Notes under the pieces: generated by a model | Told to the model about the DNA's origin: nothing | What the model saw: the letters and a program-made list of their open reading frames with translations, nothing else | Database searches by the model: none | Assembly (NCBI GenBank): GCA_965221375.1 | Contig: OZ244883.1 | Span: 384,071 to 448,070, forward strand | Direction: 5' to 3' | DNA: 64,000 bases | Source of the DNA: an uncultured candidatus Porisulfidus sp. | GTDB taxonomy: Bacteria; Pseudomonadota; Gammaproteobacteria; Poriferisulfidales; Poriferisulfidaceae | Translations under genes and position numbers: made by a program | Part shown: piece by piece, positions 33,570 to 46,324 of the stretch | Layout of the letters: each line of letters starts with the position of its first letter | How positions within the stretch are numbered: position 1 is the stretch's first letter

Positions 33570-35230
33570 GGACCGACTTCCTTGGGGAAATAGCGCAGGA
33601 TGGATTGGGCCGGGTTGGGAGCGGCCTGGCCCAGACCGCAAATCGAGGCGTCGCGCATCGTATCCGACAGCTCATTCAACAGGTCCGCATCCCACTGGGG
33701 CTCGCGCATGAGGGTGACCGCCTTGGCCGTGCCGACCCGACAGGGGGTGCATTTGCCGCAGGATTCATGGGCGAAGAACTGCATGGCGTTGAGGGCCGCA
33801 TCGCGGGCCTGATCATGTTGGGACAATACGATAATGGCCCCGGAGCCCAGGAAACAGCCGTATTCTTCTAAAGTGCCGAAGTCCAGAGGCACATCGGCCA
33901 GTTCCGCCGGCAACATGCCGCCCGAAGCGCCGCCTGGGAAATAGCCGTACAACTCATGTCCGGGGCTCATCCCGCCGCCGTACTCTTCGATCAGTTCACG
34001 CACGGTGATGCCCGCGGGTGCCAGATAGACGCCCGGTTTGCGAACGCGGCCACTGAGCGAATAGGAGCGCAAGCCTTGTCGCCCATGACGGCCTTGGCTG
34101 CAGTACCAGTCGGCACCCTGCTCAAGAATTTTGGGGACCCACAGCAAGGTTTCCAGGTTATGTTCGAGCGTGGGTCGACCAAACAGGCCGCATTCGGCAA
34201 TATAGGGAGGACGCAAGCGCGGCATGCCGCGCTTGCCTTCAATGGATTCAATCATGGCTGATTCTTCGCCGCAGACGTAAGCTCCCGCGCCACGGCGCAA
34301 CTCCAGGGTCGGCAGAGGGTGCGGAAAGTTTTCCTGCAAATCCTGCAGTGCCCCCGCCAGCATGGCGCGGGCACCCGCATACTCGTCACGAATATACAAA
34401 TAAACCTCCTCGGCTTCGATGACGTGGGCGGCGATCAGCACCCCCTCAAGAAAGGGGTGCAACTGGTGCTCCAGGTAATACCGGTCTTTGAAGGTGCCGG
34501 GTTCACCTTCGTCGATATTGACGGCCAGCAGACGGGGTTTGGGGTAATCGCGCACGATGCGCCATTTGCGGGCAACCGGAAAACCGGCGCCCCCCAAGCC
34601 ACGCAGGTCGGCCTGTTCAATGACTTGAAGAAGGTCGTCCGTACCAAGTGCGCCATCCAACAGGCGCTGCAGTTGGGTATAGGCCCCCTGATTGCAGGCT
34701 TCCGTGTAAGTGGGGGCGGCAGGCTCCAAGTCTTCCAGATGGGCCTGTTCCACTGCCGCGCAGACCGTCTCGGCGGTGGCCTGTTCGACGGGATAGCGAC
34801 GCACAACGGCAACCGGAGCGTCCGCGCAACGGCCGATACAGGAGACTTTTTGAATACGTGCCTCAGGCAAGCGTTCGGTCAATTCTGCGGCCAGTGCCTC
34901 GGCTCCAAATAGGGCACAGGTAATGGATTCGCAGACACGGATGGTCAATTCCGGCGGCGGTTCGGCGCCGTCGGGCACGACATCGAAGTGGTGGTAGAAC
35001 GAAGCGACTTCGTAGACTTCGGCAACGGACAATTTCAACCGCTCCGCCAAAGCGGCCAAATGTGCCGCCGAAAGGCTTCCGTAGAAATCCTGGATGGCGT
35101 GAAGAGACTCCAGCAGTTGATCACGCCGCGTAGGTCGACCGTCCAGCAATTGCGCGACTTCGGCGCGGGCTTCGGGAGTGACCGTGTGACCGCGTCGCCG
35201 GCGGTGAGGGGTCGATCCGTCGGCAGACAT
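33566..35230 (-). CDS. fdsB: Formate dehydrogenase beta subunit with fused N-terminal gamma (NuoE-like + NuoF-like)
   Basis: 554 aa. N-terminal NuoE-type 2Fe-2S thioredoxin-like domain (CESITCALFG...CIGRCADAP). Then a NuoF-like FMN/NAD/4Fe-4S domain (GLGGAGFPVARKW, ESCGKCTPCRVG). 4-nt overlap with fdsA. Confidence 0.8.
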   Translation of the reverse strand: MSADGSTPHRRRRGHTVTPEARAEVAQLLDGRPTRRDQLLESLHAIQDFYGSLSAAHLAALAERLKLSVAEVYEVASFYHHFDVVPDGAEPPPELTIRVCESITCALFGAEALAAELTERLPEARIQKVSCIGRCADAPVAVVRRYPVEQATAETVCAAVEQAHLEDLEPAAPTYTEACNQGAYTQLQRLLDGALGTDDLLQVIEQADLRGLGGAGFPVARKWRIVRDYPKPRLLAVNIDEGEPGTFKDRYYLEHQLHPFLEGVLIAAHVIEAEEVYLYIRDEYAGARAMLAGALQDLQENFPHPLPTLELRRGAGAYVCGEESAMIESIEGKRGMPRLRPPYIAECGLFGRPTLEHNLETLLWVPKILEQGADWYCSQGRHGRQGLRSYSLSGRVRKPGVYLAPAGITVRELIEEYGGGMSPGHELYGYFPGGASGGMLPAELADVPLDFGTLEEYGCFLGSGAIIVLSQHDQARDAALNAMQFFAHESCGKCTPCRVGTAKAVTLMREPQWDADLLNELSDTMRDASICGLGQAAPNPAQSILRYFPKEVGP

Positions 35231-35239
35231 GGGCGGCCG

Positions 35240-35752
35240 TCAGGATAGAAGGTTGTTAAAAAACTCCAAGGCTTGCGAGGAGTCCCACTCGCGCTCGCCG
35301 ATGGCCCAGTAACGGGCATGCCCTTGTGCGTCAATCAGAAAAGTGGAGGGAAGCGCACGAACACCCCATCCGTCCAGCTGCAGGTCCTCGTCCATCAGAA
35401 TCGGAAAACTGACGGGGGTCTCTTCAAGAAACTTTTCGATATCGGCGCTGGGGCCGACATGGACGCCAATCACTTCAAAGGCGGTTCCGCCCAACTGTTG
35501 GTTGAGGCGGTCCAGCGCGGGCATTTCTCGGCGACAAGGCGCACACCAGGTGGCCCAAAAGTTAATCAACAGCACGCGACCTCGCTGCTGGTTCAGGCGC
35601 CAGTGTTGACCATCCAGAGTTGGCAGTACGAAATCAGGGGCGAGGTCTCCAGAGGCCGGATTCATGAGTTCCGGTTCCTCTGAGCACCCGGCCAATGCCA
35701 GAGTGCAGGCCAGCAGCAGGATCTGCCGGCTAAGGGAGGAGCGACGGTTCAT
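35240..35752 (-). CDS. TlpA/ResA-like thiol-disulfide oxidoreductase lipoprotein
   Basis: Lipobox LALAGC. Thioredoxin motif WATWCAPC. Confidence 0.75.
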   Translation of the reverse strand: MNRRSSLSRQILLLACTLALAGCSEEPELMNPASGDLAPDFVLPTLDGQHWRLNQQRGRVLLINFWATWCAPCRREMPALDRLNQQLGGTAFEVIGVHVGPSADIEKFLEETPVSFPILMDEDLQLDGWGVRALPSTFLIDAQGHARYWAIGEREWDSSQALEFFNNLLS

Positions 35753-37097
35753 GGGCCCAGTTGGGGTCGGTCAAACTCAAGTCTCCGATCGGGGCGGCGA
35801 AGGCATCGGCGACAATTTCAGTCACGGTATCGCCGGTCAAAGCCCGTAGAAAGGCCTCCAAATCCTGTTTTTCCGTCTCCGTCAGATTGAGCGGCGTAAT
35901 CAGGGGTGACAGCAACTCATTAGGAATGCCGCCGCGGTCGTAAAAATCGATTACTTCCCGCAAGGTATCAAATTGACCGTTGTGCATGTAGGGAGCGGTC
36001 AGGGTGACGTTACGCAAGCTCTGGGTGCGGAATTTCCAGCGATCGTTCGGGTTTTCCGTGACCCGATACAGTCCGAGATCGTTGGGCATCCGTTGTTGGG
36101 TGACGCTGTCGATCTTTTCATTGGGGACATCCGCAAAGACCCCGGGTGCCAGTTGGACGCGGGTTGTGCCGGGCTTCGTCGACTCCAGCGGCTTGTCGAA
36201 CGTCACGGCATAACCGAGACCGGTGTTGTGGAATTGCTGGTCGGTAAACAATGCATGATCTTTCGCAATGGTATGGCAGGCGAAGCAGCGGGCTTTGCCT
36301 GAAAACAAGGTGAATCCGCGTTTGACATCTTCCTCCACCGCATCCGGCTGGTTACCAAAATGCCAGCGGTCGAAAGGGGAATCGCCGGCCAGCAGGGTGC
36401 GCTGGTAGCTGGCCAGCGCCTGGCCCACCGTCAGAATGTTGGGCCCCGCGCCGTCGAAAGTCCGTTCAAACAAGCCGTCGTAGTCCTGCATGCGGCTGAT
36501 CTTGTGGACCAGCCAGCCAATGGAAGGCGCTGCCATTTCGTTGTGCGCGGTGAGAGGCTGCCAGACCTGGTTTTCAAGGCTGTGTTCGCGACCGTCCAGA
36601 AACAGTCGAGTCAGGTAGGCGATGTTGTAGAGGCTGGGCGAGTTACGTAATACGGAACGGCCTTCGATGCCGACCGCGGTACGCATTTCATTGTTGGTGA
36701 AGCCTTGTTCCGGAATATGGCAGGTGGCACAGGAGAACGTGTCGTTGAAAGACAGCCGGCGGTCAAAAAAAAGTTTCCGCCCCAGGTCAATTTTCGGCCG
36801 CGTCAGCGGGTTGTCGGCCGGGATGGGTACGGCGGGCAGACCCAACGGCGGATTTTGCGCGAAGCGGATCAGGTCCTTTTTGATGCCTCGCCGCTGCAGC
36901 AGGCTTTTGGAGCGGGTTTCGTAATCCGCACTTTCATAGCCTTCCTTGACATCGCCGGGGCCTTGGGTTTGGGTGGCATCAAACGCCTGGGGCGAGTCGA
37001 CTTCGCCACTGGTTTCAGCACCCGCCGATGCAATCAGACTGAAACCGATGCCAATGGCGAGGCACGTGCGGAGGCGAGGCCAGGCCATCGGAAGCAT
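35730..37097 (-). CDS. Dihaem cytochrome c peroxidase family protein (CCP/MauG family)
   Basis: 455 aa. Signal peptide. Two CxxCH motifs (CATCH, CFACH) in the CCP/MauG arrangement. Confidence 0.85.
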   Translation of the reverse strand: MLPMAWPRLRTCLAIGIGFSLIASAGAETSGEVDSPQAFDATQTQGPGDVKEGYESADYETRSKSLLQRRGIKKDLIRFAQNPPLGLPAVPIPADNPLTRPKIDLGRKLFFDRRLSFNDTFSCATCHIPEQGFTNNEMRTAVGIEGRSVLRNSPSLYNIAYLTRLFLDGREHSLENQVWQPLTAHNEMAAPSIGWLVHKISRMQDYDGLFERTFDGAGPNILTVGQALASYQRTLLAGDSPFDRWHFGNQPDAVEEDVKRGFTLFSGKARCFACHTIAKDHALFTDQQFHNTGLGYAVTFDKPLESTKPGTTRVQLAPGVFADVPNEKIDSVTQQRMPNDLGLYRVTENPNDRWKFRTQSLRNVTLTAPYMHNGQFDTLREVIDFYDRGGIPNELLSPLITPLNLTETEKQDLEAFLRALTGDTVTEIVADAFAAPIGDLSLTDPNWAHEPSLLP

Positions 37098-37105
37098 GGA
37101 AGTTT

Positions 37106-37804
37106 TCAGAGCGTCGATTCTTCCATGAGCAACGTTTCAAGATCGCTCAGTAACAGGTCGGGATGGAGAAAGGAGACACTGTAAATATTGCGAATCCGAC
37201 GCTCACGGTCGATCAAATACACCCGCAGCATGTGGGCGTAGTCGCCCGTGTAACGTCCCTCTTCATCGTATTCGGCAATGGTGTATTGGCCATAGTCATC
37301 CAGAATCGGCTCCAGGGCGGCTCGGTCGGGAGCCGTCAAAAACTGCCAGTCGACGCCTTTTTCACCCAGCCCACGCCCGAACTCACGCATCACTTCGGGC
37401 GAGTCGTGGTCCGGATCGAAGGACATGGAAAGCAGCCGCGTGGCCGCCGCCAGATCCGGTCGCGTTTCCATTTTTTTCTGCAGTTTGTGAAAGACCGCAT
37501 TGGCGAGGGGACAACCATTGATGTCCGAGCAGCGCGTATAGATGAAACTGAACAGCACCAAGCGGTCTCCCATGAGATCGAGCAACTGCGCCGGTTGGCC
37601 ATCTTCGAGCAACACGTTTCCATTGGCGGCCTGCATAATCGGGGGCAACTTGTAAGTGCCTGGGGCCGGAGGCGGGTAATCCAAAGCCCGCCAGCCGGGG
37701 GCGAGCACCTCTGGCTGTGAAGAAGCAAACGTGGGAAGGACACAGGTCGCAACCAGCAGACCTATGGCCAAGCGTACGGGAGTCACCAAGTTCAAAAGCA
37801 TCAA
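37106..37804 (-). CDS. SCO1/SenC family copper chaperone
   Basis: 232 aa. FIYTRCSDINGCP, SFDPDHDSPE, HMLRVYLIDRE motifs. AAGGAGG SD upstream. Confidence 0.8.
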   Translation of the reverse strand: MMLLNLVTPVRLAIGLLVATCVLPTFASSQPEVLAPGWRALDYPPPAPGTYKLPPIMQAANGNVLLEDGQPAQLLDLMGDRLVLFSFIYTRCSDINGCPLANAVFHKLQKKMETRPDLAAATRLLSMSFDPDHDSPEVMREFGRGLGEKGVDWQFLTAPDRAALEPILDDYGQYTIAEYDEEGRYTGDYAHMLRVYLIDRERRIRNIYSVSFLHPDLLLSDLETLLMEESTL

Positions 37805-37865
37805 GAAAACCTCCTTTGAGGAAATATTGTATTAGTCTTTTGTCACAAGTTCAGGGTTCCCGTTG

Positions 37866-37900
37866 CAAGAAAAAGCCGCCCCGGCAAAACGGGGCGGCTT
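37866..37900 (-). terminator. Intrinsic terminator after the SBP56 gene (minus strand)
   Basis: 11-bp perfect stem AAGCCGCCCCG/CGGGGCGGCTT, loop gcaaaa, followed on the minus strand by TTTTTCT. Confidence 0.7.
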
Positions 37901-37937
37901 CAGGCTTATCGTGGCGGGAGACCCGCCTTCGATTTAA

Positions 37938-39281
37938 TTACTCAGCCGCGGCAACTCTGGCACGCGATGCGGATTTGCCTCCGTAGAGCGAATAGGCGCC
38001 GAAGCGCATCTGGTGCGAACGCCCCAGCTTGTGCTCATAGAAGTCAATGGTCCACTGGTGCTTCAGCTCATTGCCGTCCCAGTGATACAGCTTGACATAC
38101 TGCTCATCGGCTTCGCCGGTCTTATCCCAGTTGCCCAGCAGCGAACTGGAGTAATAGAGGCGCGCGCCGTCCCAGCTTTGCGACACCATGTTGACCTGAC
38201 TGCCAATCGCTGCCTCAAGAACCTGGTGGGGATTGTGCGGGTCACTGATATCGAAGTAGCGGGTCATGCCATCCAAAAACGTGTTAATCCACAGGCCGGT
38301 GTCGTCCGCAGTAATGGAAATGTCTACCGGCAACGGTATTTTGGAGGGATCGCCAACGTCCGCAACTGCTTTGCCGTGCCATTCACCGGCTTCATCTTCA
38401 TACAGCAACCAGAGTTGCGAGGTCAGTGCCGTGGTGGTGAAGCAATAGCGGTGATTGGGGTCCCAGGCGCAACGAATTTCCAGCGGCGCTCCAGGCACGT
38501 CCAGCACCTTGAGCGGTTTGCGCTCATGCATGTTCCAGACCACCATGGTGTTGCCGAAGCGCTGCATGGCAGCTTGGTCTTTGAGCATCTGGCCGAAATC
38601 CATCATGTAATTGGACCATCCGGTGAAGGAGGACGTGAGCATGACGTTGCTCTCGGCCTTCACGCGCACGTCGTATCCATACCCGTCGGCATGCTGGCCG
38701 GTTTTGACTGCATCACGCAGATCGGCATCGGTCGGCATCCAGTGGGTAGCCACAAACTCGCCCTGGTTGTTGTACTCGGCAAGACCGGTACGACCACCGT
38801 GATCGACGTTGTTGGATAGCGCCGAAATCATCATGCGTCCCGGCAGTGCGTAGAACGTGTGCGGACCGACCAGACCACCGGTTTTTTCCACATAATCAGT
38901 GATGACTTTGTGCAGAGCCGGCTGGCGCGGATTGGAATAGATGTCGAAGATAAAAATCTTGTTGGAGTCCAAACCGCCGGCCCAAAGATATTTGCGGTCG
39001 TCGCTGAGACCCGAATGATGGGCTTCGTTGCGTCCGCCTACAGAAAGCACGCTGACGATCTGGGCATAGGTTTGGGATTCGGGGTTGACGTCGATCGTGA
39101 CCAGTTTGTCCTGCTCGTCACCAAGGCCCTCGACCCCCAGAGTCCAGACATAGACGTAATCTTCTTGACCTTGAATTTTCGCCATATACGGCGACATGCA
39201 GGTTTCATCGGCCTGCGCCGGCATGGCCCACGCAAACATGGCCGCCATCGCCAGGCCTGTTCCAAAAATCTTGTGTTTCAT
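37938..39281 (-). CDS. mtoX: SBP56 (selenium-binding protein) family periplasmic protein, methanethiol oxidase-like
   Basis: Start re-set to MKHKIFGTGLAMAAMFAWAMPAQA (signal peptide, GAGGA SD). SBP56 family throughout. The SCO1 + MauG-like neighbourhood is as described for MtoX. Confidence 0.8.
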   Translation of the reverse strand: MKHKIFGTGLAMAAMFAWAMPAQADETCMSPYMAKIQGQEDYVYVWTLGVEGLGDEQDKLVTIDVNPESQTYAQIVSVLSVGGRNEAHHSGLSDDRKYLWAGGLDSNKIFIFDIYSNPRQPALHKVITDYVEKTGGLVGPHTFYALPGRMMISALSNNVDHGGRTGLAEYNNQGEFVATHWMPTDADLRDAVKTGQHADGYGYDVRVKAESNVMLTSSFTGWSNYMMDFGQMLKDQAAMQRFGNTMVVWNMHERKPLKVLDVPGAPLEIRCAWDPNHRYCFTTTALTSQLWLLYEDEAGEWHGKAVADVGDPSKIPLPVDISITADDTGLWINTFLDGMTRYFDISDPHNPHQVLEAAIGSQVNMVSQSWDGARLYYSSSLLGNWDKTGEADEQYVKLYHWDGNELKHQWTIDFYEHKLGRSHQMRFGAYSLYGGKSASRARVAAAE

Positions 39282-39545
39282 AAATTCCTCAATGGCTAAG
39301 TTTTCAATAATTCCCGGCTTCAGCAGCCGACACACCCCCTACGGGCGCATCCGACTCGGTATCGCCTGCCTCAATTATGGACGAATCTGGCGGTGCGTCA
39401 AGTTGCAGGGCAGCCGAAAAAGTGCGTCTCATCCGGTTTGCCCCCGAATAGGGGCGATGCAAGCAGCGTCGAGGAGCATTGCCGAGCGAAGGATATTGAG
39501 CGTTTAAAGTATGATAAGAAATTCAAAATATCGCCTCCAATAGGG

Positions 39546-39875
39546 ATGTCCAAGGATTTTGTCACGTTGACCGAGCGCGCGGCGGTTCGCATTCAAGAGC
39601 AACTGCCCAAGGACGAGGAAGGGGTCGCCTTGCGTCTGGCTGCACGGCGGCTGGAGGACGGAAGTTTCCATTACGCCATGGGGTTTGATGATCAACATCG
39701 CGAAGGGGATCAGCGTTTCAGTGTTCAAAAGATACCGTTGGTGATCGGAGCCGACAGCCTCGCATTGATACGAGGGATGACTGTCGATTTTGCCGAACTG
39801 GAGCCGGGCGAGACCCGCTTTGTTTTTCTCAACCCCAATGATCCCGCCTACAAACCTCCGACCGAACCGTTGTGA
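39546..39875 (+). CDS. HesB/IscA-fold protein lacking all conserved cysteines
   Basis: Aligns with the IscA core (VTLTERAAVRIQEQL ~ ITLSDSAAARVNTFL; LRLAARRLEDGSFHY ~ LRLGVRTSGCSGMAY). No Cys anywhere. Stop overlaps the kinase start. Confidence 0.55.
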   Translation: MSKDFVTLTERAAVRIQEQLPKDEEGVALRLAARRLEDGSFHYAMGFDDQHREGDQRFSVQKIPLVIGADSLALIRGMTVDFAELEPGETRFVFLNPNDPAYKPPTEPL

Positions 39876-40783
39876 CGCTTGAACTGCCCGATGTTTCCGC
39901 GTGGTGGGTGCTGATCCCGTTGGCGGGGGCGGCGGGTTTCATTCTGTGGGTCTATTGGCGACGAGTTCTGCCGTATGCGGTGATCCGGCAGTGGGCGTTT
40001 CGGATGCGCGGCGGGGACTTGTCCGCGCGCATGCATCCTCCACGCGCGGGCAATTTCGCTGAGCTGGCGGTAGACCTGAATGTGTTGGCGGAAATGATTC
40101 AGACGTTGTCCCGGGACACCGAAGAGCAGCTGCAGGGGTTTCGCGAATACACGGCGATGAAAGAGCGGGCGCACATGTCCGGCGAACTGCACGACTCGCT
40201 GGCGCAGACTTTGGCGGGCATCAAAATCCAGGTGCGGGTATTGGATGAGACCCTGCACCAGGGCGATGAAGCGCAAGCCTGGCAGGAGTTGGAGCGTATC
40301 GAGGGCAATCTGGAACAGGCGAACCATGAGTTGCGTGAACTCATCGCTCATTTGCGGGCACCCATTGAAGGGTCCGGACTATTGCCGAAGGTGGAGCAAG
40401 TGGTGGAGCGCTTCCGTCACGATTGTCCTGAGACGCAAATTTTCGTGCAGTCGCAGTGGGAGGATTTGCTGCTGCCTGCCGAGCAGGAACTGCAGATTGT
40501 GCGCATCATTCAGGAGGCGTTGGCGAATGTGCGCAAGCATGCGCAAGCCAGTACGGTACGCATCATGATTGCCGGCGATGCGCAAAGCCGACAGTGCCGA
40601 GTGCTTGTGGAAGATGACGGAGTGGGTTTGAAAAAGGTCCCGCAGGAAAATGTTGCCGGTCGTCACATTGGTTTGAATTTGTTGCGCGAGCGGGCGCGAC
40701 GCCTGGGGGGCGAATTACGGGTGGAGAGCGAGCCGGGGGAGGGTGTGCAAGTGGCGCTCAACTTCAAGGCCATGCAGGAATGA
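39872..40783 (+). CDS. Sensor histidine kinase, NarX/DegS type (1 TM + HAMP + HisKA_3 + HATPase), no periplasmic domain
   Basis: 303 aa. HisKA_3 ELHDSLAQTLAGIKIQ. HATPase G-boxes. Confidence 0.85.
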   Translation: MTLELPDVSAWWVLIPLAGAAGFILWVYWRRVLPYAVIRQWAFRMRGGDLSARMHPPRAGNFAELAVDLNVLAEMIQTLSRDTEEQLQGFREYTAMKERAHMSGELHDSLAQTLAGIKIQVRVLDETLHQGDEAQAWQELERIEGNLEQANHELRELIAHLRAPIEGSGLLPKVEQVVERFRHDCPETQIFVQSQWEDLLLPAEQELQIVRIIQEALANVRKHAQASTVRIMIAGDAQSRQCRVLVEDDGVGLKKVPQENVAGRHIGLNLLRERARRLGGELRVESEPGEGVQVALNFKAMQE

Positions 40784-41469
40784 AAGCTCTCAAGGTCACC
40801 ATCATTGATGACCACACGTTGTTTCGTGATGGTTTGCGGGGATTGCTGGAGCGTCACGGGCTGAAGGTGCTGGATTCGGTGGGCGATGCGCAGGCCGGCT
40901 ATGCGGCGTTAGATCGACAAAGTCCCGATGTGGTGTTGCTGGATTTGCGCTTGCCAGGCACGGGCGGTTTGGAGATTTTGCGGGAATTGCGCAAGGATGC
41001 AAATTGCCCGCCCGTGGTGATGTTGACCACCAGCGATCAGGAAGCGGATCTGGTGGAGGCGTTACGGACGGGGGCAAGCGGTTATTTACTCAAAGACATG
41101 GAACCGGACGATCTGGTGGTTGCGTTGCGTGCGATCGTGTCGGGTGAGACCGTAGTGGCGCCCAGTCTGGCCCCGGCTTTGGCGCGGGTGGTCCAAGGTC
41201 ACGAGCCGCAAGCTTCAAAGGAGGACGAAACCCCCTTTGATGTTTTGACGCCGCGCGAGCGGGAAATTCTGGCGCTGTTGGCGGAGGGGTTGAGTAACCG
41301 GGGAATTGCGAATAGTTTGGGAATTTCCGAAGGCACCGTCAAGGTGCATGTCAAGGCCATTTTGCGAAAACTGCAACTGACATCAAGGGTGATGGCGGCC
41401 GTGTTGGCGGTCGAGCATGGGTTGGGGGGCAAGAAATTTCCGGCTCAACCCGACACGGAATCGGACTAG
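40780..41469 (+). CDS. NarL/FixJ-family response regulator (REC + LuxR HTH)
   Basis: 229 aa. D-D-K receiver residues; C-terminal LTPREREILALLAEGLSNRGIA. Confidence 0.9.
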   Translation: MKALKVTIIDDHTLFRDGLRGLLERHGLKVLDSVGDAQAGYAALDRQSPDVVLLDLRLPGTGGLEILRELRKDANCPPVVMLTTSDQEADLVEALRTGASGYLLKDMEPDDLVVALRAIVSGETVVAPSLAPALARVVQGHEPQASKEDETPFDVLTPREREILALLAEGLSNRGIANSLGISEGTVKVHVKAILRKLQLTSRVMAAVLAVEHGLGGKKFPAQPDTESD

Positions 41470-41681
41470 TCAGAGATAGATAAAGGTACAATAAGAGTTC
41501 GATAGAGGTCTGAAGAAAAACAAGGAAGTTTTTCGTGAGCCGCCTGTGGTATATGCAGGGAGCGGAACGGTAGTTGAACGGAGAATTAAACTCCCAACAA
41601 CGTAATCATCTTGTAACTTTTTCTCTATATTATTGTCCGAATAAATAACCCACTTTTTAGAACAAGGAGGTTCATACGAAC

Positions 41682-43202
41682 ATGTGGTTCCGATACATCC
41701 CGACGTCTGTTGCACTGGCATTGGCAATGACCTTGCCGTCTGTGACTGTGGCATCTCCCTCAGAAATTGAGCATCTGAAGCAGGAAAATGCGCAGATGAA
41801 GGAAATGCTTATGCAGATGCAGGAGCAACTGCAGGAAGTCATCATGAAAACCAAGGCCATGGAGCAGGCTGCGAAGGAAGGCAAAGACAAGAAAGGCGTG
41901 GTCAAATCCCAGAAGGAGAACATCACCATCTCCACGACCGGCGGGGGCATTCAGGTCAAATCCAACACGGGCAGCCAGTTCAAGATTGGTGCTCGTTTAA
42001 TGTTCGATCACTATTCTTACGATGAATTTTGGAATAGTACGGCCGATGATGAGGCGGAAGAAAATGAAATTCGTCGCGCCCGTTTCACGCTAAGTGGCAA
42101 CACGGGCAAGCATTGGTCGTACAAGTTCACCACCGATATTAATCACGAGGGTGGACGCGCCAGTGTGGATACCGGTTTTGTGCAATACGCTAGCAAGCCG
42201 ATGTACGTCAGATTTGGCAAATTCAAACGTCCGGCCATGGTGGAAGAGCGTACCAGTTCCAAGTGGCTTTCTACGATGGAACGTTCAATCGTGAGCGAAT
42301 TGTCGGGGACTTTCACCGGCAAGCCTTCTTTCGGCGGTGTTGGAGTCGGGTTCGCCACCAAAGGCGATATGCCGATGAGTGGTGCGCTGGGCATCTTCGA
42401 TGATGAAGTCGATGAAGATGATGGAGCGGATATCTATGGCTTGGGTGCGCGCTTCTCAATCTCCCCGAAATTCGATGACCATTCCTTCATGCATGCAGGC
42501 CTGTCGTACTACAACGTCGACTACAAGGGTAAAGACTTCCGTATGCGTTCACGCCTGGGCGTACGTAGCGATGGCAAAGTCCACCCGTTTGAAACCGATC
42601 AGATGAAAACCGATGATATTGATCAGATAGGTGTGGAACTTGCCTATGTGCGTGGTCCCTTCTCTCTGCAGGGCGAATTCATGAATGTGGAGTCCGATGG
42701 TACCAATGACGAGGGTTGTGGTGCTGTGACGCACAACGGTCGAAGCGGAGACAATCTCCTGTTTACTCGGGAAGGTGAAAATACCTGCGATATTGAAATG
42801 GATGGCCTTTATGCGCAGGCCGCTTACACGCTTACGGGCGAGACGCGCGGCTATTCGGCATCCTCGGGCGCATTCAAGTCCATCAAGCCGAAAGATGAAA
42901 TGGGAGCCTGGGAAGTGGTGCTTCGTTATGAAGATGCCGAAGTCGATATTCCGGGGCGCAACATCAGTGCTGATTTGGAGCGTCTGGTGGTCGGCTTGAA
43001 CTGGTATGTCAACAAGAACGTCAAGTTCATGTTGAACTATGTGGATTCGGAGATTGACGATTGCTCCAGCAGCGGTGTGACTGCCACAGATTCGAACGGT
43101 GAGAATCCAATTTCATACACGGGTTGGTCGCACAAGAAATGTGGCAATAACAACGAAGATAGTGGCAATGCACTCACATTGCGAGGCCAGTACGTGTTCT
43201 GA
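41682..43202 (+). CDS. Phosphate-selective porin O/P (OprO/OprP) family outer-membrane porin
   Basis: 506 aa. Signal peptide, N-terminal coiled coil, beta-barrel ending QYVF. Confidence 0.75.
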   Translation: MWFRYIPTSVALALAMTLPSVTVASPSEIEHLKQENAQMKEMLMQMQEQLQEVIMKTKAMEQAAKEGKDKKGVVKSQKENITISTTGGGIQVKSNTGSQFKIGARLMFDHYSYDEFWNSTADDEAEENEIRRARFTLSGNTGKHWSYKFTTDINHEGGRASVDTGFVQYASKPMYVRFGKFKRPAMVEERTSSKWLSTMERSIVSELSGTFTGKPSFGGVGVGFATKGDMPMSGALGIFDDEVDEDDGADIYGLGARFSISPKFDDHSFMHAGLSYYNVDYKGKDFRMRSRLGVRSDGKVHPFETDQMKTDDIDQIGVELAYVRGPFSLQGEFMNVESDGTNDEGCGAVTHNGRSGDNLLFTREGENTCDIEMDGLYAQAAYTLTGETRGYSASSGAFKSIKPKDEMGAWEVVLRYEDAEVDIPGRNISADLERLVVGLNWYVNKNVKFMLNYVDSEIDDCSSSGVTATDSNGENPISYTGWSHKKCGNNNEDSGNALTLRGQYVF

Positions 43203-43261
43203 TTCGGGTTTAGGGTCAGGCGTGCTGCCGGAAGTCGTCGTTTGATCCACCTGTTCCTAAT

Positions 43262-43289
43262 CCGCCGCCTTCTGGGCGGCGGATTTTTT
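43262..43289 (+). terminator. Intrinsic terminator after porin gene 1
   Basis: CCGCCGCC-ttctg-GGCGGCGG followed by ATTTTTT. Confidence 0.8.
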
Positions 43290-43346
43290 GCACGTCAGGT
43301 TTCGGGCGGATTTTTCAAAGTCGCGCAATGTGCTACACTCAAACCT

Positions 43347-44495
43347 ATGAAATGGGGGCGATTTTATTTGAATAGGGTACGGTGCGCAGAGTCGGGTGCG
43401 GTTCGGTTTAATAGATTTTTAATAACCCCATTCGCAAACAGAAAAATAGTACGTGGGGCATGGGCAGGATGTTTGTGCTTCAGTTTGAGTCTGTTGTCTC
43501 CCGCCTACGCTCTCTCGGACAACGATCTGGATCAGTTGGCCGACGAAAGTACGCAGATGCGCGAATTGATGACGCGCATGCAAACCCGTCTACAGGCTCC
43601 CGCCCGCGCGGCGCTGCCGGTAGAGACGTTTGATCAGACTTCGGGTTTTGATTTGAGTTTAGGTCAAACCTCGGCGTGGGCACCGGCGTCGGCGATGTTG
43701 GGAGGGTCTTTGCAAGCGCGTTGGGCCCGCATGATTGAACAGGGTGTTCTGGGACGCTTCGCTGACAGCGAGGCGGATACGCAGCGAGTCGTATCAACGC
43801 CTCCCACCGTGCGGTTTGTGGCGGGTGAGGAGTTACCGTGGTACGGCTCCGTACGGCTGCGCGGTCCGGCCGAGCAAGTTGCGCTGAACCCGGTTGAGGT
43901 GCAGGCGCAATTGATGGTGGTGCCGCGTTTTGATGACGGCAGTTTCCTGCACGTGGGGATTTCGTACCACGCCTTGGACATGTCTCGCGAAACGACCGCG
44001 ACACAGAAGTTTGCGGATGATCAGAACTGGGGTCAAGGCGACTGGCGGCGTTTGGGAATGGATTTGGGTTATATCCAGGATTCCTATTCGGTACAGGCGC
44101 GCTATATGAAACTTCGCGGCGAAGTATCCGACATCGGGCTGCAGTACCCGCATGAAACGCTGCGCGGCAGCGAGCGTGTGGATGTCGAGGGTTTTTACAT
44201 TCAAGGGGCCTGGCGCATCGCCGGAGAGCCCCTGGAGAGCTATTACGCTCCGGGACTGCTTGCCCACATTGAGCCGCGCGACGAAGAAGGGATTTGGGAA
44301 GTGGTGGTGCGCTACGCCAATTTGGGCGGGACATCACGGGATCAGTCGAATGTGTCCGACTCCATGTTGCTGGGCGTGCACTGGCGCGCCGGATCGTCGT
44401 TCAAGCTGCAGCTGGACTACATTGAAGGCAGCGACGAAGCGTCATCTATTTCCGGTGACGGCGGTTTGAGCTTGCGAGGCACTTTGTCATTCTGA
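43347..44495 (+). CDS. Porin O/P family paralogue
   Basis: Shares Porin_O_P C-terminal blocks with the upstream paralogue (WEVVVRYANL; ...LRGTLSF). Start set at ATG 43347, downstream of the terminator (the ORF-track start at 43242 lies inside it). Start uncertain. Confidence 0.6.
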   Translation: MKWGRFYLNRVRCAESGAVRFNRFLITPFANRKIVRGAWAGCLCFSLSLLSPAYALSDNDLDQLADESTQMRELMTRMQTRLQAPARAALPVETFDQTSGFDLSLGQTSAWAPASAMLGGSLQARWARMIEQGVLGRFADSEADTQRVVSTPPTVRFVAGEELPWYGSVRLRGPAEQVALNPVEVQAQLMVVPRFDDGSFLHVGISYHALDMSRETTATQKFADDQNWGQGDWRRLGMDLGYIQDSYSVQARYMKLRGEVSDIGLQYPHETLRGSERVDVEGFYIQGAWRIAGEPLESYYAPGLLAHIEPRDEEGIWEVVVRYANLGGTSRDQSNVSDSMLLGVHWRAGSSFKLQLDYIEGSDEASSISGDGGLSLRGTLSF

Positions 44496-44655
44496 TGACA
44501 TAGTGCTGCGGTAAAAAATTTCCTGGTTTTTGTTTGTTGAGCCCATCCGGTGCTCAGAGGGGATTTGTTGATGCAGTCATCGCAGTACATTTTTGCGATG
44601 TGCAACAGACGCTAAAAGGTCTCTGCCGTGTTGGGCTTCTTGCTGGCCAAAATCA

Positions 44656-44700
44656 TAAAAAAGCCCGACTCTGTGGCTGGGAAAGCGGTAGAGTCGGGCT
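44656..44700 (-). terminator. Intrinsic terminator on minus strand
   Basis: 11-bp stem AGCCCGACTCT/AGAGTCGGGCT followed on the minus strand by TTTTTTAT. Confidence 0.65.
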
Positions 44701-44783
44701 GAAGAGGTGGCCGACGTCCGTGTCGGCCGGAAAGCCGGACATCCAGTCCGACATAAACCTCAACGCTCTTATAGGAGAAGTGT

Positions 44784-44855
44784 TTAGTCGAGGTAACCTA
44801 GGCGCATCACAGTAAAGACGGTCGCCCAGATGACGATAGTAGTGATGATTTCCAT
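44784..44855 (-). CDS. Candidate 23-aa hydrophobic peptide (MEIITTIVIWATVFTVMRLGYLD)
   Basis: ATG preceded by GAGGA at -9..-5. Sigma70-like -35/-10 about 50 nt upstream. Intrinsic terminator about 85 nt downstream. Below the ORF-track size cut-off. Confidence 0.3.
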   Translation of the reverse strand: MEIITTIVIWATVFTVMRLGYLD

Positions 44856-44912
44856 TGTTTCCTCATCAAATGGGGTGGCAGAACAAGGCCCCGCGCCTTA
44901 TTCAGTAATTCA

Positions 44913-44941
44913 TAATATAAGGATATTTTGATATAAATCAA
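44913..44941 (-). promoter_or_regulatory. Sigma70-like promoter (TTGATT-18-TATTAT) with palindrome TTGATttatATCAA over the -35
   Basis: Read directly on the minus strand. AT-rich 570-bp intergenic region. Confidence 0.3.
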
Positions 44942-45066
44942 GTCTACACAATCCGATTTTAGTAGGACACGCCTATTTCATTGATTAATATAAGATTATC
45001 TAATAATGCCACAAAACTCTGCCCAGGCGCGCTGCGGCAGAAGATGTGCAGATGTCTGAAAAATAA

Positions 45067-45684
45067 CTAACTATTTGATTCCCGCACATGGCGGGACAGA
45101 TACACAATCTGTATCAGCAAAAAGACCAGCGGAAGCCCCAAAGCCAGACCGAACAGCTTGAACTGCACCCAGAATTCTTCCGAGTATGCGTATGCCACAT
45201 ACAAATTCAGTGCCCCACACAGAGTAAAAAAACCAATCCACGCGAGGTTCAGACGCTGCCAGATGCGAGGATCCGTCAAGGGCAGGCTGTGCGCCAGCAT
45301 GCGTTCGACCAACGTGCGGGGGCTAAACAGGCTGACCCCCACAAATGCAAGCGCCATCGCCCAATAGAAAACCGTCGGCTTCCAGATGATGAACATGGGA
45401 TCCTTCAGCAGCAGTGTGAGGCTGCCGGCAATCCAGACCACGACCAGGGCAGCAAGGTGAATGGGGCGCAATTGCTGCATCACCTGCATAGCGCCACATT
45501 GGATCAACATGGCGACCATGAGGACAATCGTCGCAAAATAGATCCGATCTCCCGACGCATGGGCCTGAAGCTCCAGGTCCAACGGGTCGCTGACGAAAGC
45601 GATCCATTCCTCCGGCATATCCGGGTAGAAAAAATAGGCCAGCACGAACAGTGCGACGGCCAGCGTTTCGACAAAGAACTTCAT
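45067..45684 (-). CDS. ispZ: Intracellular septation protein A (YciB)
   Basis: Start re-set to MKFFVETLAVALF. Co-linear with E. coli YciB (KLNLAWIGFFTLCGALNLYVAY). Confidence 0.8.
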   Translation of the reverse strand: MKFFVETLAVALFVLAYFFYPDMPEEWIAFVSDPLDLELQAHASGDRIYFATIVLMVAMLIQCGAMQVMQQLRPIHLAALVVVWIAGSLTLLLKDPMFIIWKPTVFYWAMALAFVGVSLFSPRTLVERMLAHSLPLTDPRIWQRLNLAWIGFFTLCGALNLYVAYAYSEEFWVQFKLFGLALGLPLVFLLIQIVYLSRHVRESNS

Positions 45685-45706
45685 AGATGTGCGATTATAA
45701 GAGGCC

Positions 45707-46324
45707 ATGACCGAGCATCTCGTCGTCCACCCCGATAATCCGCAAGTCCGGCTGATAGGTCGGGCGGCGCAATTGTTGCGCGACGGCGGGCTGTTGGTGT
45801 ACCCCACGGACTCCGGCTATGCCTTTGGTTGTGCAGTTGGGAACAAGGCCGCGGTGGATGACATTCGACGTCTGCGGCACTTGAGTCCCAGCCGTCCGTT
45901 TACCCTGGTCTGTCGGGATCTGTCCGATTTGTCCACTTATGCGCGGGTCGACAACGCTTCGTACCGCATTCTGAAAGCGCACACCCCGGGTCCGTATACG
46001 TTTTTGCTGGAGGCGACGCGGGAGGTGCCGCGCCGTCTGATGGAGCCCAAACGGCGCACCATTGGTCTGCGCATTCCGGACCATCCGGTGGTGTCTCTTC
46101 TGCTCGATGAATATGGAGAGCCGCTGATGAACAGCACCTTGATGTTGCCGGAGTTGGAAGACTCTCCGGTGGAGGCCAGCGATTTTCTGGATCGCCTCAA
46201 ACAGCGCGTTGGCGCAATTGTCGATTGCGGCTTCTGTCGCAGTGTGCCGACGACGGTAGTGGATCTGACAGGGGGCGTCCCTCAGGTCGTGCGCCAAGGT
46301 GGGGGCGCGTTCCCGTTGCTATAA
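45707..46324 (+). CDS. yciO: L-threonylcarbamoyladenylate synthase family protein (YrdC/YciO type)
   Basis: 205 aa. YrdC-domain motifs LLVYPTDSGYAFGC, PGPYTFLL. Confidence 0.85.
   Translation: MTEHLVVHPDNPQVRLIGRAAQLLRDGGLLVYPTDSGYAFGCAVGNKAAVDDIRRLRHLSPSRPFTLVCRDLSDLSTYARVDNASYRILKAHTPGPYTFLLEATREVPRRLMEPKRRTIGLRIPDHPVVSLLLDEYGEPLMNSTLMLPELEDSPVEASDFLDRLKQRVGAIVDCGFCRSVPTTVVDLTGGVPQVVRQGGGAFPLL

Follow-up and report, generated by a model that had tools for sequence, protein, structure and literature searches.

What does a protein with the fold of an iron-sulfur (Fe-S) cluster carrier, and without a single cysteine, do in front of a histidine kinase whose gene overlaps its own? This question is raised by a locus of an uncultured candidatus Porisulfidus sp. 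(GCA_965221375.1), which we studied in a stretch of 64,000 nt of contig OZ244883.1 (the window; coordinates given without a locus name are window positions). The list of open reading frames (ORFs) and scans with Pfam and NCBIfam models gave five genes on the + strand between 39546 and 44495, the set that an earlier note on this DNA had described. They encode the cysteine-less protein of 109 aa, a histidine kinase, a response regulator and two porins, and lie next to mtoX, the gene for a methanethiol oxidase (Table 1). What the earlier reading had missed is that the 109-aa protein is homologous to DsrR. Together with the kinase and the regulator it forms a trio that is a relocated and trimmed copy of a module normally closing the operon for reverse dissimilatory sulfite reductase (dsr). 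The recurrence of this trio suggests that DsrR may act through a kinase.

The best sequence match of the 109-aa protein among solved structures is DsrR of Allochromatium vinosum (2K4Z; 79.7 bits, E 1.7e-21), and IscA-type chains reach at most 30 bits (E 5e-06 or weaker). An AlphaFold2 model built with 25 homologues as input (pLDDT 90.2) was compared with known structures by Foldseek, which ranked 2K4Z first (template modelling score 0.75), followed by IscA (1R94) and SufA (2D2A). The fold of an A-type carrier without the three cysteines, claimed earlier from the sequence, is thus borne out by the structure prediction that had been proposed as a check and by a cysteine count of zero. The alignment of 25 members of the DsrR family contains no cysteine column; its invariant motifs are YAMGFD and NPNDP. 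The CGCG ligand motif of IscA is replaced by a proline-rich tail, NPNDPxYxPP, which ends in DPAYKPP in the window protein, and the Cys-X(n)-Cys-Gly-Cys ligands of IscA, HesB, SufA and ErpA are missing. The scores for the curated NCBIfam carrier models were all below their cut-offs: 47 for TIGR00049 (cut-off 58.8), 37 for IscA (150.6), 37 for ErpA (117) and 36 for SufA (136). Among carrier-type models the broad Pfam domain alone passes. The protein has no signal peptide and is cytoplasmic. A profile search of 1.84 billion representative proteins returned 264 clusters of the DsrR family at E <=1e-10, and the best 150 of these 264 are all short stand-alone proteins.

DsrR of A. vinosum is a known family (Grimm, Cort and Dahl 2010, J Bacteriol 192:1652, cited in PMC11406059). 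Where later papers touch on it, they speak of an IscA-like protein that does not bind iron or Fe-S clusters and is part of the regulation of sulfur oxidation (PMC11406059, PMC13469137). The window copy does not follow dsrN in a dsr operon but sits between mtoX and the kinase gene, and no dsr genes are present anywhere in the 64-kb window. No second DsrR homologue from the same chromosome was found among the 120 proteins listed, a weak sign of a single copy.

Is the neighbourhood of DsrR and a kinase peculiar to this genome? A scan of one genome per species yielded 541 DsrR loci, and the neighbours were tabulated for the best 80. Among these 80 closest loci, 48 are linked to dsrN with no less than 2.5 kb of sequence available downstream. 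A HisKA_3 kinase is encoded directly downstream on the same strand in 44 of the 48, a NarL/FixJ-type regulator on the same strand in 42 and a rhodanese in 35. The kinase is also present in 9/9 mtoX-linked loci whose downstream sequence is long enough. For the reverse count we took the 80 closest kinase relatives in metagenome contigs, of which 57 have at least 450 nt of upstream sequence. Here dsrR lies immediately upstream of the kinase in 49/57 loci (48 identified by script, plus L131, whose dsrR ORF was spotted on visual inspection of the ORF list). One exception is L130, in which a set of kinase, regulator and rhodanese genes is divergent from dsrAB-like genes. Altogether, the DsrR-kinase gene pair recurs in roughly 100 loci.

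In the dsrN-linked loci, relatives of the window protein with 46-50% identity close the series dsrMKLJOPN; after them come genes for a HisKA_3 kinase (with HAMP and GAF), a GerE-type regulator and a rhodanese. These loci stem from Thiohalophilus, Thiohalobacter, Ectothiorhodospiraceae, Thiotrichales and Acidiferrobacterales, and one of them (L069) from the cultured Thiohalophilus thiocyanatoxydans DSM 16326. The module at the end of the dsr operon is found in many marine gammaproteobacterial sulfur oxidisers. The literature that we searched contained no paper tying DsrR to a kinase and no description of a dsr-linked module of DsrR, kinase, regulator and rhodanese.

Two variations of the dsr-linked module were seen along the way. 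In a variant without rhodanese, the kinase and regulator genes are separated by an inserted gene, whose product has about 487 aa and contains a 2Fe-2S ferredoxin (Fer2) domain (L009, 9788-13540; also L067, L068, L081, L122, L124, L132, L135 and L141). A CLCG motif (CFCG in a single case) is present in the GAF domain of 22 out of 56 long dsr-linked kinases (for example L003, 8396-10048; L006, 8314-10014; and L069). Some kinases of this type have one more cysteine about 25 residues downstream, and a rhodanese gene usually follows their regulator gene. These features may hint at sensing of sulfane sulfur in a subset of the kinases. As a general thiol sensor of the dsr-linked kinases CLCG was dropped, being present in just these 22 of the 56.

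The kinase of the window is built of about seven external residues, one transmembrane helix, and HAMP, HisKA_3 and HATPase_c domains. Its hydropathy profile has a single hydrophobic helix at about residues 8-26. Pfam gave no HAMP call on the window kinase itself; by homology the domain covers residues 24-87, with 41% identity to the Pfam-annotated HAMP domain of a relative. The H-box reads ELHDSLAQ and contains His107. The kinase is devoid of a periplasmic or other recognisable input domain, so that the previous description of one transmembrane helix plus HAMP and no periplasmic sensor proved correct. The label "NarX-type" fits in part. It is appropriate for the transmitter half, since NarX and NarQ have the same arrangement of HAMP, HisKA_3 and HATPase_c, and not for the rest: the NarQ and NarX models match residues 85-302 alone (142 and 115 bits versus cut-offs of 553 and 578), and the two transmembrane helices around a periplasmic ligand-binding domain are not there. 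The regulator consists of a receiver domain with the DD, D55 and K motifs visible in the sequence, and of a GerE helix-turn-helix. It shares 62% identity with the regulator of the dsr-linked module in L003, and reaches 200.9 bits with the NCBIfam model for NarL, below the cut-off of 250.

The three genes are tightly joined. The GTG start of the kinase gene shares the sequence GTGA with the stop of the DsrR-like gene, which confirms the overlap described before, and the start of the regulator gene overlaps the stop of the kinase gene. The DsrR-like gene, the kinase and the regulator are hence a single translationally coupled unit.

Alignment of the window kinase to the dsr-linked kinases demonstrates how the trio was trimmed. 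Identity is 41% in the HAMP domain and 54% over the dimerisation and histidine phosphotransfer (DHp) and catalytic ATPase domains, and the proteins align end to end otherwise, while the first transmembrane helix (TM1) and the whole GAF domain are cleanly missing from the window kinase. Most dsr-linked kinases carry a GAF input domain of their own; short kinases without GAF also occur at the end of some dsr operons (L107, L108, L134, L136 and L149). The window DsrR is 43-57% identical to the relatives that follow dsrN, with the genes in identical order and on one strand in both settings. The closest relatives of the trio, with 70-80% identity, come from metagenome-assembled genomes of Candidatus Porisulfidus from sponges, and the relocated trio is typical of Candidatus Porisulfidus-like sponge symbionts. 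The 13 loci of the mtoX type cluster together as one clade whether the neighbour-joining tree is built from DsrR, the kinase core or the regulator, and the overlap of DsrR stop and kinase start is found in 12 of the 13. Where the module has left the dsr operon, DsrR travels with the kinase and not with dsrN, and the kinase retained DsrR as a neighbour while its GAF domain was lost. The earlier idea of an accessory protein acting in one unit with the kinase therefore has strong comparative support, from about 100 loci, a common clade and a conserved overlap.

Around the trio, genes of mobile or defence type have been inserted in several relatives; the trio itself is never split. Between mtoX and the dsrR-like gene, L002 (5846-7728) and L021 carry an IS110 transposase gene and a gene for a TIR/SEFIR protein. 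In L011 (3067-7857, 10249-15205) the trio is flanked by genes for DUF4007, a cysteine desulfurase, HipA and a UvrD-like helicase, and mtoX is not found within 8 kb of it.

How could such a unit work? We propose that the kinase, itself without a sensor, sits in the inner membrane and that its cytoplasmic part is bound, at the HAMP domain or the dimerisation helices, by the DsrR-like protein of the cytoplasm. Depending on the cell's sulfur-oxidation state, binding would set the balance between kinase and phosphatase activity. Since the kinase has lost TM1 and its GAF domain, DsrR is the obvious cytoplasmic input. Once phosphorylated, the regulator would act on envelope genes in the neighbourhood; the downstream porins are the most plausible targets, and the divergent mtoX operon is a possible one. 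Taken together, the coupled trio, a kinase set by DsrR, neighbouring envelope targets and a sulfur-anion channel in porin 1 make up the explanation that we slightly favour. Its parts are not equally firm: we regard the functional coupling of DsrR with the kinase as probable, and the targets and the porin substrate as tentative. A more far-reaching version would make DsrR the direct co-sensor of a dedicated HisKA_3 kinase in a three-component system for sulfur status, which sponge symbionts have redeployed to envelope genes, including a clade of porins for thiosulfate or a related anion. We consider this version conceivable, though somewhat doubtful as a whole.

Several observations weigh against a DsrR-set kinase, the first of them being that DsrR can occur without one. 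Two distant representatives lack a kinase and show the orders dsrN-dsrR and dsrPN-dsrC-dsrR-cobA, so that the link is restricted to a clade. The kinase is also not adjacent in 4/48 of the close dsrN-linked loci and is missing in a clade of DsrR-like proteins linked to gmk. In A. vinosum, the order is dsrN-dsrR-dsrS, and no kinase is known to follow dsrR. Deletion of dsrR reportedly slowed sulfur oxidation and lowered the levels of DsrE and DsrL, and this control is said to have been judged post-transcriptional, for which a transcriptional two-component route is no obvious fit. No fusion of DsrR to a kinase was present among the best 150 of the 264 family clusters. We infer the physical contact of the two proteins from the linkage of their genes. 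Finally, the kinase has a cysteine, Cys185 (RFRHDCP, 40424-40426), between the DHp helices and the ATPase domain. This residue (RFRxxCP) is invariant in 13/13 GAF-less kinases of the mtoX type (L011-L021, L171 and the window) and missing from the three dsr-linked kinases aligned. Cys185 could itself be the sensor, as a thiol switch replacing the lost GAF input.

The gmk-linked proteins form a third DsrR-like clade (112-118 aa, 45-48% identical); their genes overlap the 3' end of the guanylate kinase gene (gmk) and lie at 8001-8340 in L028, L036 and L045 and at 1570-1926 in L042, with no histidine kinase or dsr genes nearby. Their hosts are other sponge-associated genomes, from Oxydemutatoraceae and from assemblies of 2.2-2.9 Mb labelled 'Porisulfidus'.

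DsrR and the two-component system might then be independent neighbours, whose order would reflect inherited synteny. DsrR would be a post-transcriptional factor or a chaperone-like helper of sulfur-oxidation proteins, as proposed for A. vinosum, and the kinase would sense for itself, through GAF in the dsr-linked forms and through Cys185 or the membrane in the window form. The occurrence of DsrR without adjacent kinase, the lack of fusions among the best 150 clusters and the effect reported from A. vinosum favour this main alternative, and the invariant Cys185 of the GAF-less kinases and the GAF domain present in most dsr-linked ones also speak for it. It does not easily account for the departure of dsrR from the dsr operon in company of kinase and regulator, leaving dsrN behind, nor for the stop/start overlap in 12/13 loci with all three proteins in the same clade. 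The reverse association (49/57) and the retention of DsrR by a kinase that was losing its GAF domain are further points that independence leaves unexplained. We therefore judge independence unlikely, and continue with the favoured explanation, in which DsrR sets the kinase.

Table 1. Features of the locus around the dsrR-like gene, with window positions.
Feature	Position	Strand	Basis
DsrR homologue, 109 aa, 0 Cys	39546-39875	+	Pfam Fe-S_biosyn 31.4 bits, cut-off 26.3
Histidine kinase, 303 aa	39872-40783	+	Pfam HisKA_3 53.2 bits, HATPase_c 48.6 bits
NarL/FixJ-family response regulator, 229 aa	40780-41469	+	Pfam Response_reg 97.7 bits, GerE 75.8 bits
Porin 1, OprO/OprP family, 506 aa, signal peptide	41682-43202	+	Pfam Porin_O_P 164.6 bits
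Terminator-like hairpin with T-run, 3' of porin 1	43262-43290	+	Consensus scan, pattern match only
Porin 2, divergent Porin_O_P relative, 382 aa	43347-44495	+	Pfam 46.1 bits, C-terminal half only
mtoX promoter, TTGACG, 16-nt spacer, CATAAT	39374-39401	-	Scan match at 10/12 positions
-10-like element, AGTATGAT in the window, GTATCATG in relatives	39508-39515	+	Conserved block in 12 loci
mtoX, periplasmic Cu-dependent methanethiol oxidase	37938-39281	-	NCBIfam MtoX equivalog 744.9 bits, cut-off 650

The gene on the other side of the trio was described before as part of an "mtoX array". Gene calls and Pfam matches revise this to a single mtoX in an operon with the order mtoX-SCO1-mauG-ahpC/TSA-fdsB-fdsA, encoding besides MtoX a SCO1 protein, a MauG-like di-haem peroxidase, an AhpC/TSA protein and FdsB/FdsA-like subunits of formate dehydrogenase. 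The mtoX family has been described, and MtoX, SCO1 and MauG act in the periplasm (PMC5739008). The operon seems to continue into the genes for the NAD-linked formate dehydrogenase (30858-39281, - strand). The AhpC/TSA protein and the formate dehydrogenase would handle peroxide from methanethiol oxidation and formate from its formaldehyde product, respectively.

Upstream of the trio, mtoX-SCO1-mauG is present in divergent orientation in 9/11 Porisulfidus loci, and the porin pair follows the regulator in 10/11. A more distant genome (L171) has the mtoX operon, the trio, one porin (51% identical) and a gene for a choice-of-anchor-I beta-propeller. Across related loci, mtoX and the trio are separated by as little as about 220 nt and as much as 3.3 kb. 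The divergent adjacency pointed out in the earlier note thus holds for the window, but about half of the related genomes have insertions that break it.

Was the regulation of these neighbours visible in their promoters? A -10-like box about 30 nt upstream of the DsrR-like start is the sole block conserved there in 12 loci, despite their differing neighbours, and is likely the promoter of the three-gene unit itself. The mtoX promoter block and an 80-nt leader are near-invariant in 10 related genomes, whatever sits further upstream. On the question of targets, too, there is evidence unfavourable to the explanation proposed here. The mtoX promoter is close to the sigma-70 consensus, with nothing conserved upstream of its -35 element, and phylogenetic footprinting found no conserved operator or shared motif in the promoter regions of mtoX, the dsrR-like gene and the porins. 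Upstream of porin 1 an AT-rich block was found by this approach, for which the window is too diverged from its relatives in this region. The porin leaders of the sox-linked loci (see below) and of L171 had no motif in common. The NarL heptamer TACYYMT and 7-2-7 pairs of it were not conserved upstream of dsrR-like, porin 1 or mtoX in 10 genomes; with this lack of heptamers in the three promoter regions and the score below the cut-off, the regulator does not qualify as a NarL equivalog. The whole window was also searched for the Pho box of E. coli (CTGTCATNNNNCTGTCAY) with up to 3 mismatches, giving 7 matches versus 7.7 expected, none of them upstream of either porin. The earlier doubt about PhoB control is strengthened by this search, while membership of the porins or of mtoX in the regulon gained no support, with neither NarL heptamers nor a shared operator. 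Since neither a Pho box nor a NarL heptamer nor a shared operator was found, we deduce the targets of the regulator from gene position only. Regulation of mtoX is the weakest link, because insertions separate mtoX from the unit in several relatives.

The mtoX leader itself, of about 80-90 nt (39282-39373, - strand), is strongly conserved in 10 genomes (L012-L019, L021). RNAalifold predicts for it a hairpin of 20 pairs, 4 of them with double changes, and the covariation term is small (-0.75 kcal/mol). Rfam models applied to 35000-46000 with E up to 1 gave matches at chance level alone.

Given this neighbourhood, one could also think of the DsrR-like protein as a helper in maturation or targeting of the metalloproteins of the mtoX operon, either Cu-containing MtoX or the Fe-S/Mo formate dehydrogenase. 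Its gene adjoins mtoX, SCO1, mauG and fdsBA in most Porisulfidus loci, and NfuA, whose cysteine-less A-type-carrier domain binds client apoproteins, provides an analogy. We nevertheless regard such a role as very improbable. The gene is on the strand opposite to mtoX, has its own promoter-like element, and stays with the kinase where insertion sequence or defence genes intervene as well as in L011; its relatives reside in dsr operons without mtoX. Moreover, MtoX, SCO1 and MauG are periplasmic proteins (PMC5739008), and the DsrR-like protein lacks a signal peptide.

We now turn to the porins as candidate targets of the unit. The whole barrel of porin 1 shows homology to OprO and OprP, the best matches being 4RJW (OprO, E 7e-36) and 2O4V (OprP, E 7e-32). 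Its residues were mapped to OprP numbering by multiple alignment. The arginine ladder is kept (R59, R60, R218, R220, R222 and R226), as are R34, D94, S124, S125, K126 and R133. The central site is altered, with K121 replaced by E together with A122 by R, Y62 by R and Y114 by K, and the periplasmic lysine cluster is mostly gone. Porin 1 consequently has the central residues neither of OprP (K121, Y62/Y114) nor of OprO (K121, F62/D114). K121 is important for phosphate binding in OprP. In two genomes, soxYZAXB starts with a homologue sharing 53-55% identity; another homologue (40% identity) has a PstS-like gene as its neighbour and carries R at position 121. In the sox-linked loci (L173, 7001-12237; L174, 6001-11225) the porin is followed by soxY-soxZ-soxA-(soxX)-soxB, and genes for a carbonic anhydrase and a c-type cytochrome adjoin.

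Residues and relatives support the view of porin 1 as an OprO/P-type anion channel, re-modelled in its centre, whose preferred substrate is not phosphate. Because its closest relatives head sox operons, entry of thiosulfate or another sulfur oxyanion into the periplasm is its most likely role, as judged from neighbourhood and residues. The use of just these two kinds of evidence to infer the substrate is a point to be held against this part of our explanation. The sox-heading homologues favour the former suggestion of a sulfur-related anion over phosphate.

The alternative of an ordinary phosphate-starvation locus, with channels for phosphate or pyrophosphate and a local two-component system for phosphate or another anion that has nothing to do with sulfur, could draw on the full-length homology of porin 1 to OprO/OprP with its ladder, D94, S124, S125, K126 and R133 and on the PstS-linked homologue with 40% identity, but is hardly credible in view of a phosphate ligand K121 turned into E with Y62 and Y114 turned into R and K, of the missing Pho box (up to 3 mismatches to the E. 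coli consensus, upstream of either porin) and the lack of pst genes nearby, of a regulator of NarL/FixJ and not PhoB/OmpR type, of nearest porin relatives in sox operons or the same mtoX locus, and of a kinase and regulator from the dsr-operon-linked clade.

Porin 2 is a more distant protein. Over about 210 aa it shares 28% identity with porin 1, its C-terminal half alone can be aligned, and it had no match among Protein Data Bank sequences. None of the six residues of the arginine ladder is kept or alignable. Its family is narrow, with 53 proteins that all have PF07396, and the AlphaFold2 model was unusable (pLDDT 39.5). The description of both genes as paralogous anion-selective porins thus remains valid for porin 1, and cannot be upheld for porin 2, which has no alignable N-terminal half and no ladder. 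We also corrected its start: in place of the TTG at 43242 given before, a start at 43347 is more likely, since the hairpin at 43262-43290 would lie inside the longer ORF and the public gene call agrees.

Both porins have a heptad-like helix rich in Gln and Met right after the signal peptide, EIEHLKQENAQMKEMLMQMQEQLQEV in porin 1 (41730-41850) and DLDQLADESTQMRELMTRMQTRLQ in porin 2 (43510-43590). This coiled-coil-like N-terminal stretch has no counterpart in the aligned OprP and OprO. In most related loci the porins are followed by a gene for a choice-of-anchor-I/WD40-like beta-propeller protein of 463-484 aa (L002, 13220-14611; L171, 8529-9983; L012, L015, L016, L019, L020 and L021). The gene is absent from the window, and no remnant was present in 44496-45066.

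The families of DsrR, kinase, regulator and porin are already known. What appears to be undescribed in the literature searched is the clade-wide tie of dsrR to a dedicated kinase-regulator pair, the redeployment of this set next to mtoX, where the kinase has become a bare transmitter, and a sulfur-linked clade of OprO/P porins. DsrR has been known since 2010 as a cysteine-less look-alike of IscA that in some way promotes the oxidation of sulfur, and the parts of papers of 2024 and 2026 that deal with it still present it just as an 'IscA-like' regulator. Because dsrR is tied to a specific kinase-regulator pair and the trio moves together, there is now a concrete and testable mechanism for DsrR. 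If true, the A-type-carrier fold without cysteines would constitute an unrecognised class of kinase accessory proteins, and the regulatory phenotype of the dsrR mutant, for which a mechanism has been missing since 2010, would be explained. Thiohalophilus thiocyanatoxydans (L069) offers a cultured carrier of the module for such tests. The OprO/P-like porins linked to sox and mtoX are candidates for the entry of sulfur oxyanions through the outer membrane, a step rarely considered in models of periplasmic sulfur oxidation. For the sponge symbionts, the locus points to a regulated use of methanethiol and reduced sulfur.

Systems in which the output of a HisKA_3 kinase is set by a partner from the same operon, and passed on to a NarL/FixJ-type regulator, are known from NreABC of Staphylococcus, LiaFSR of Bacillus and UhpABC of E. 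coli. Small partner proteins serve NreB (NreA) and LiaS (LiaF), and LiaS-type kinases have no extracytoplasmic sensor. The window kinase resembles such accessory-dependent kinases in having no input domain and a recurring co-encoded partner (44/48, 49/57 and 12/13 in the counts above). The partners in the three known systems are a GAF protein, a membrane protein and a transporter-like sensor, whereas the putative partner in the window has an A-type-carrier fold, unlike any of these. With NarX/NarQ-NarL the window proteins share the type of transmitter and the regulator family, and these models give the best NCBIfam matches; they differ by the lack of a periplasmic nitrate domain and of a second transmembrane helix, by scores far below the cut-offs and by the absence of heptamers.

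Porin 1 is like OprP and OprO of Pseudomonas aeruginosa in its whole-barrel homology and arginine ladder, and unlike them in its altered centre, its coiled-coil-like N-terminal extension, the absence of Pho box and pst genes and its sox-linked relatives. In Ruegeria pomeroyi and other Roseobacters, the gene for an IclR-type regulator lies directly upstream of the mtoX-SCO1-mauG operon (PMC5739008). A regulator gene upstream of mtoX-SCO1-mauG is common to both, but the regulator family is wholly different, and for the window control of mtoX is a supposition.

Further parallels lie within the dsr system itself. DsrR of A. vinosum and the window protein have the same fold, no cluster cysteines and the NPNDP tail in common; the window copy is placed outside of a dsr operon, is coupled to a kinase and lies beside mtoX and porin genes. 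The dsr-linked module consists of homologous proteins (43-57% identity for DsrR, about 54% for the kinase core and about 62% for the regulator) encoded in the same order and on the same strand. The window version is without TM1, the GAF domain and a rhodanese, and has mtoX and porin genes as neighbours instead of dsrMKJOPN.

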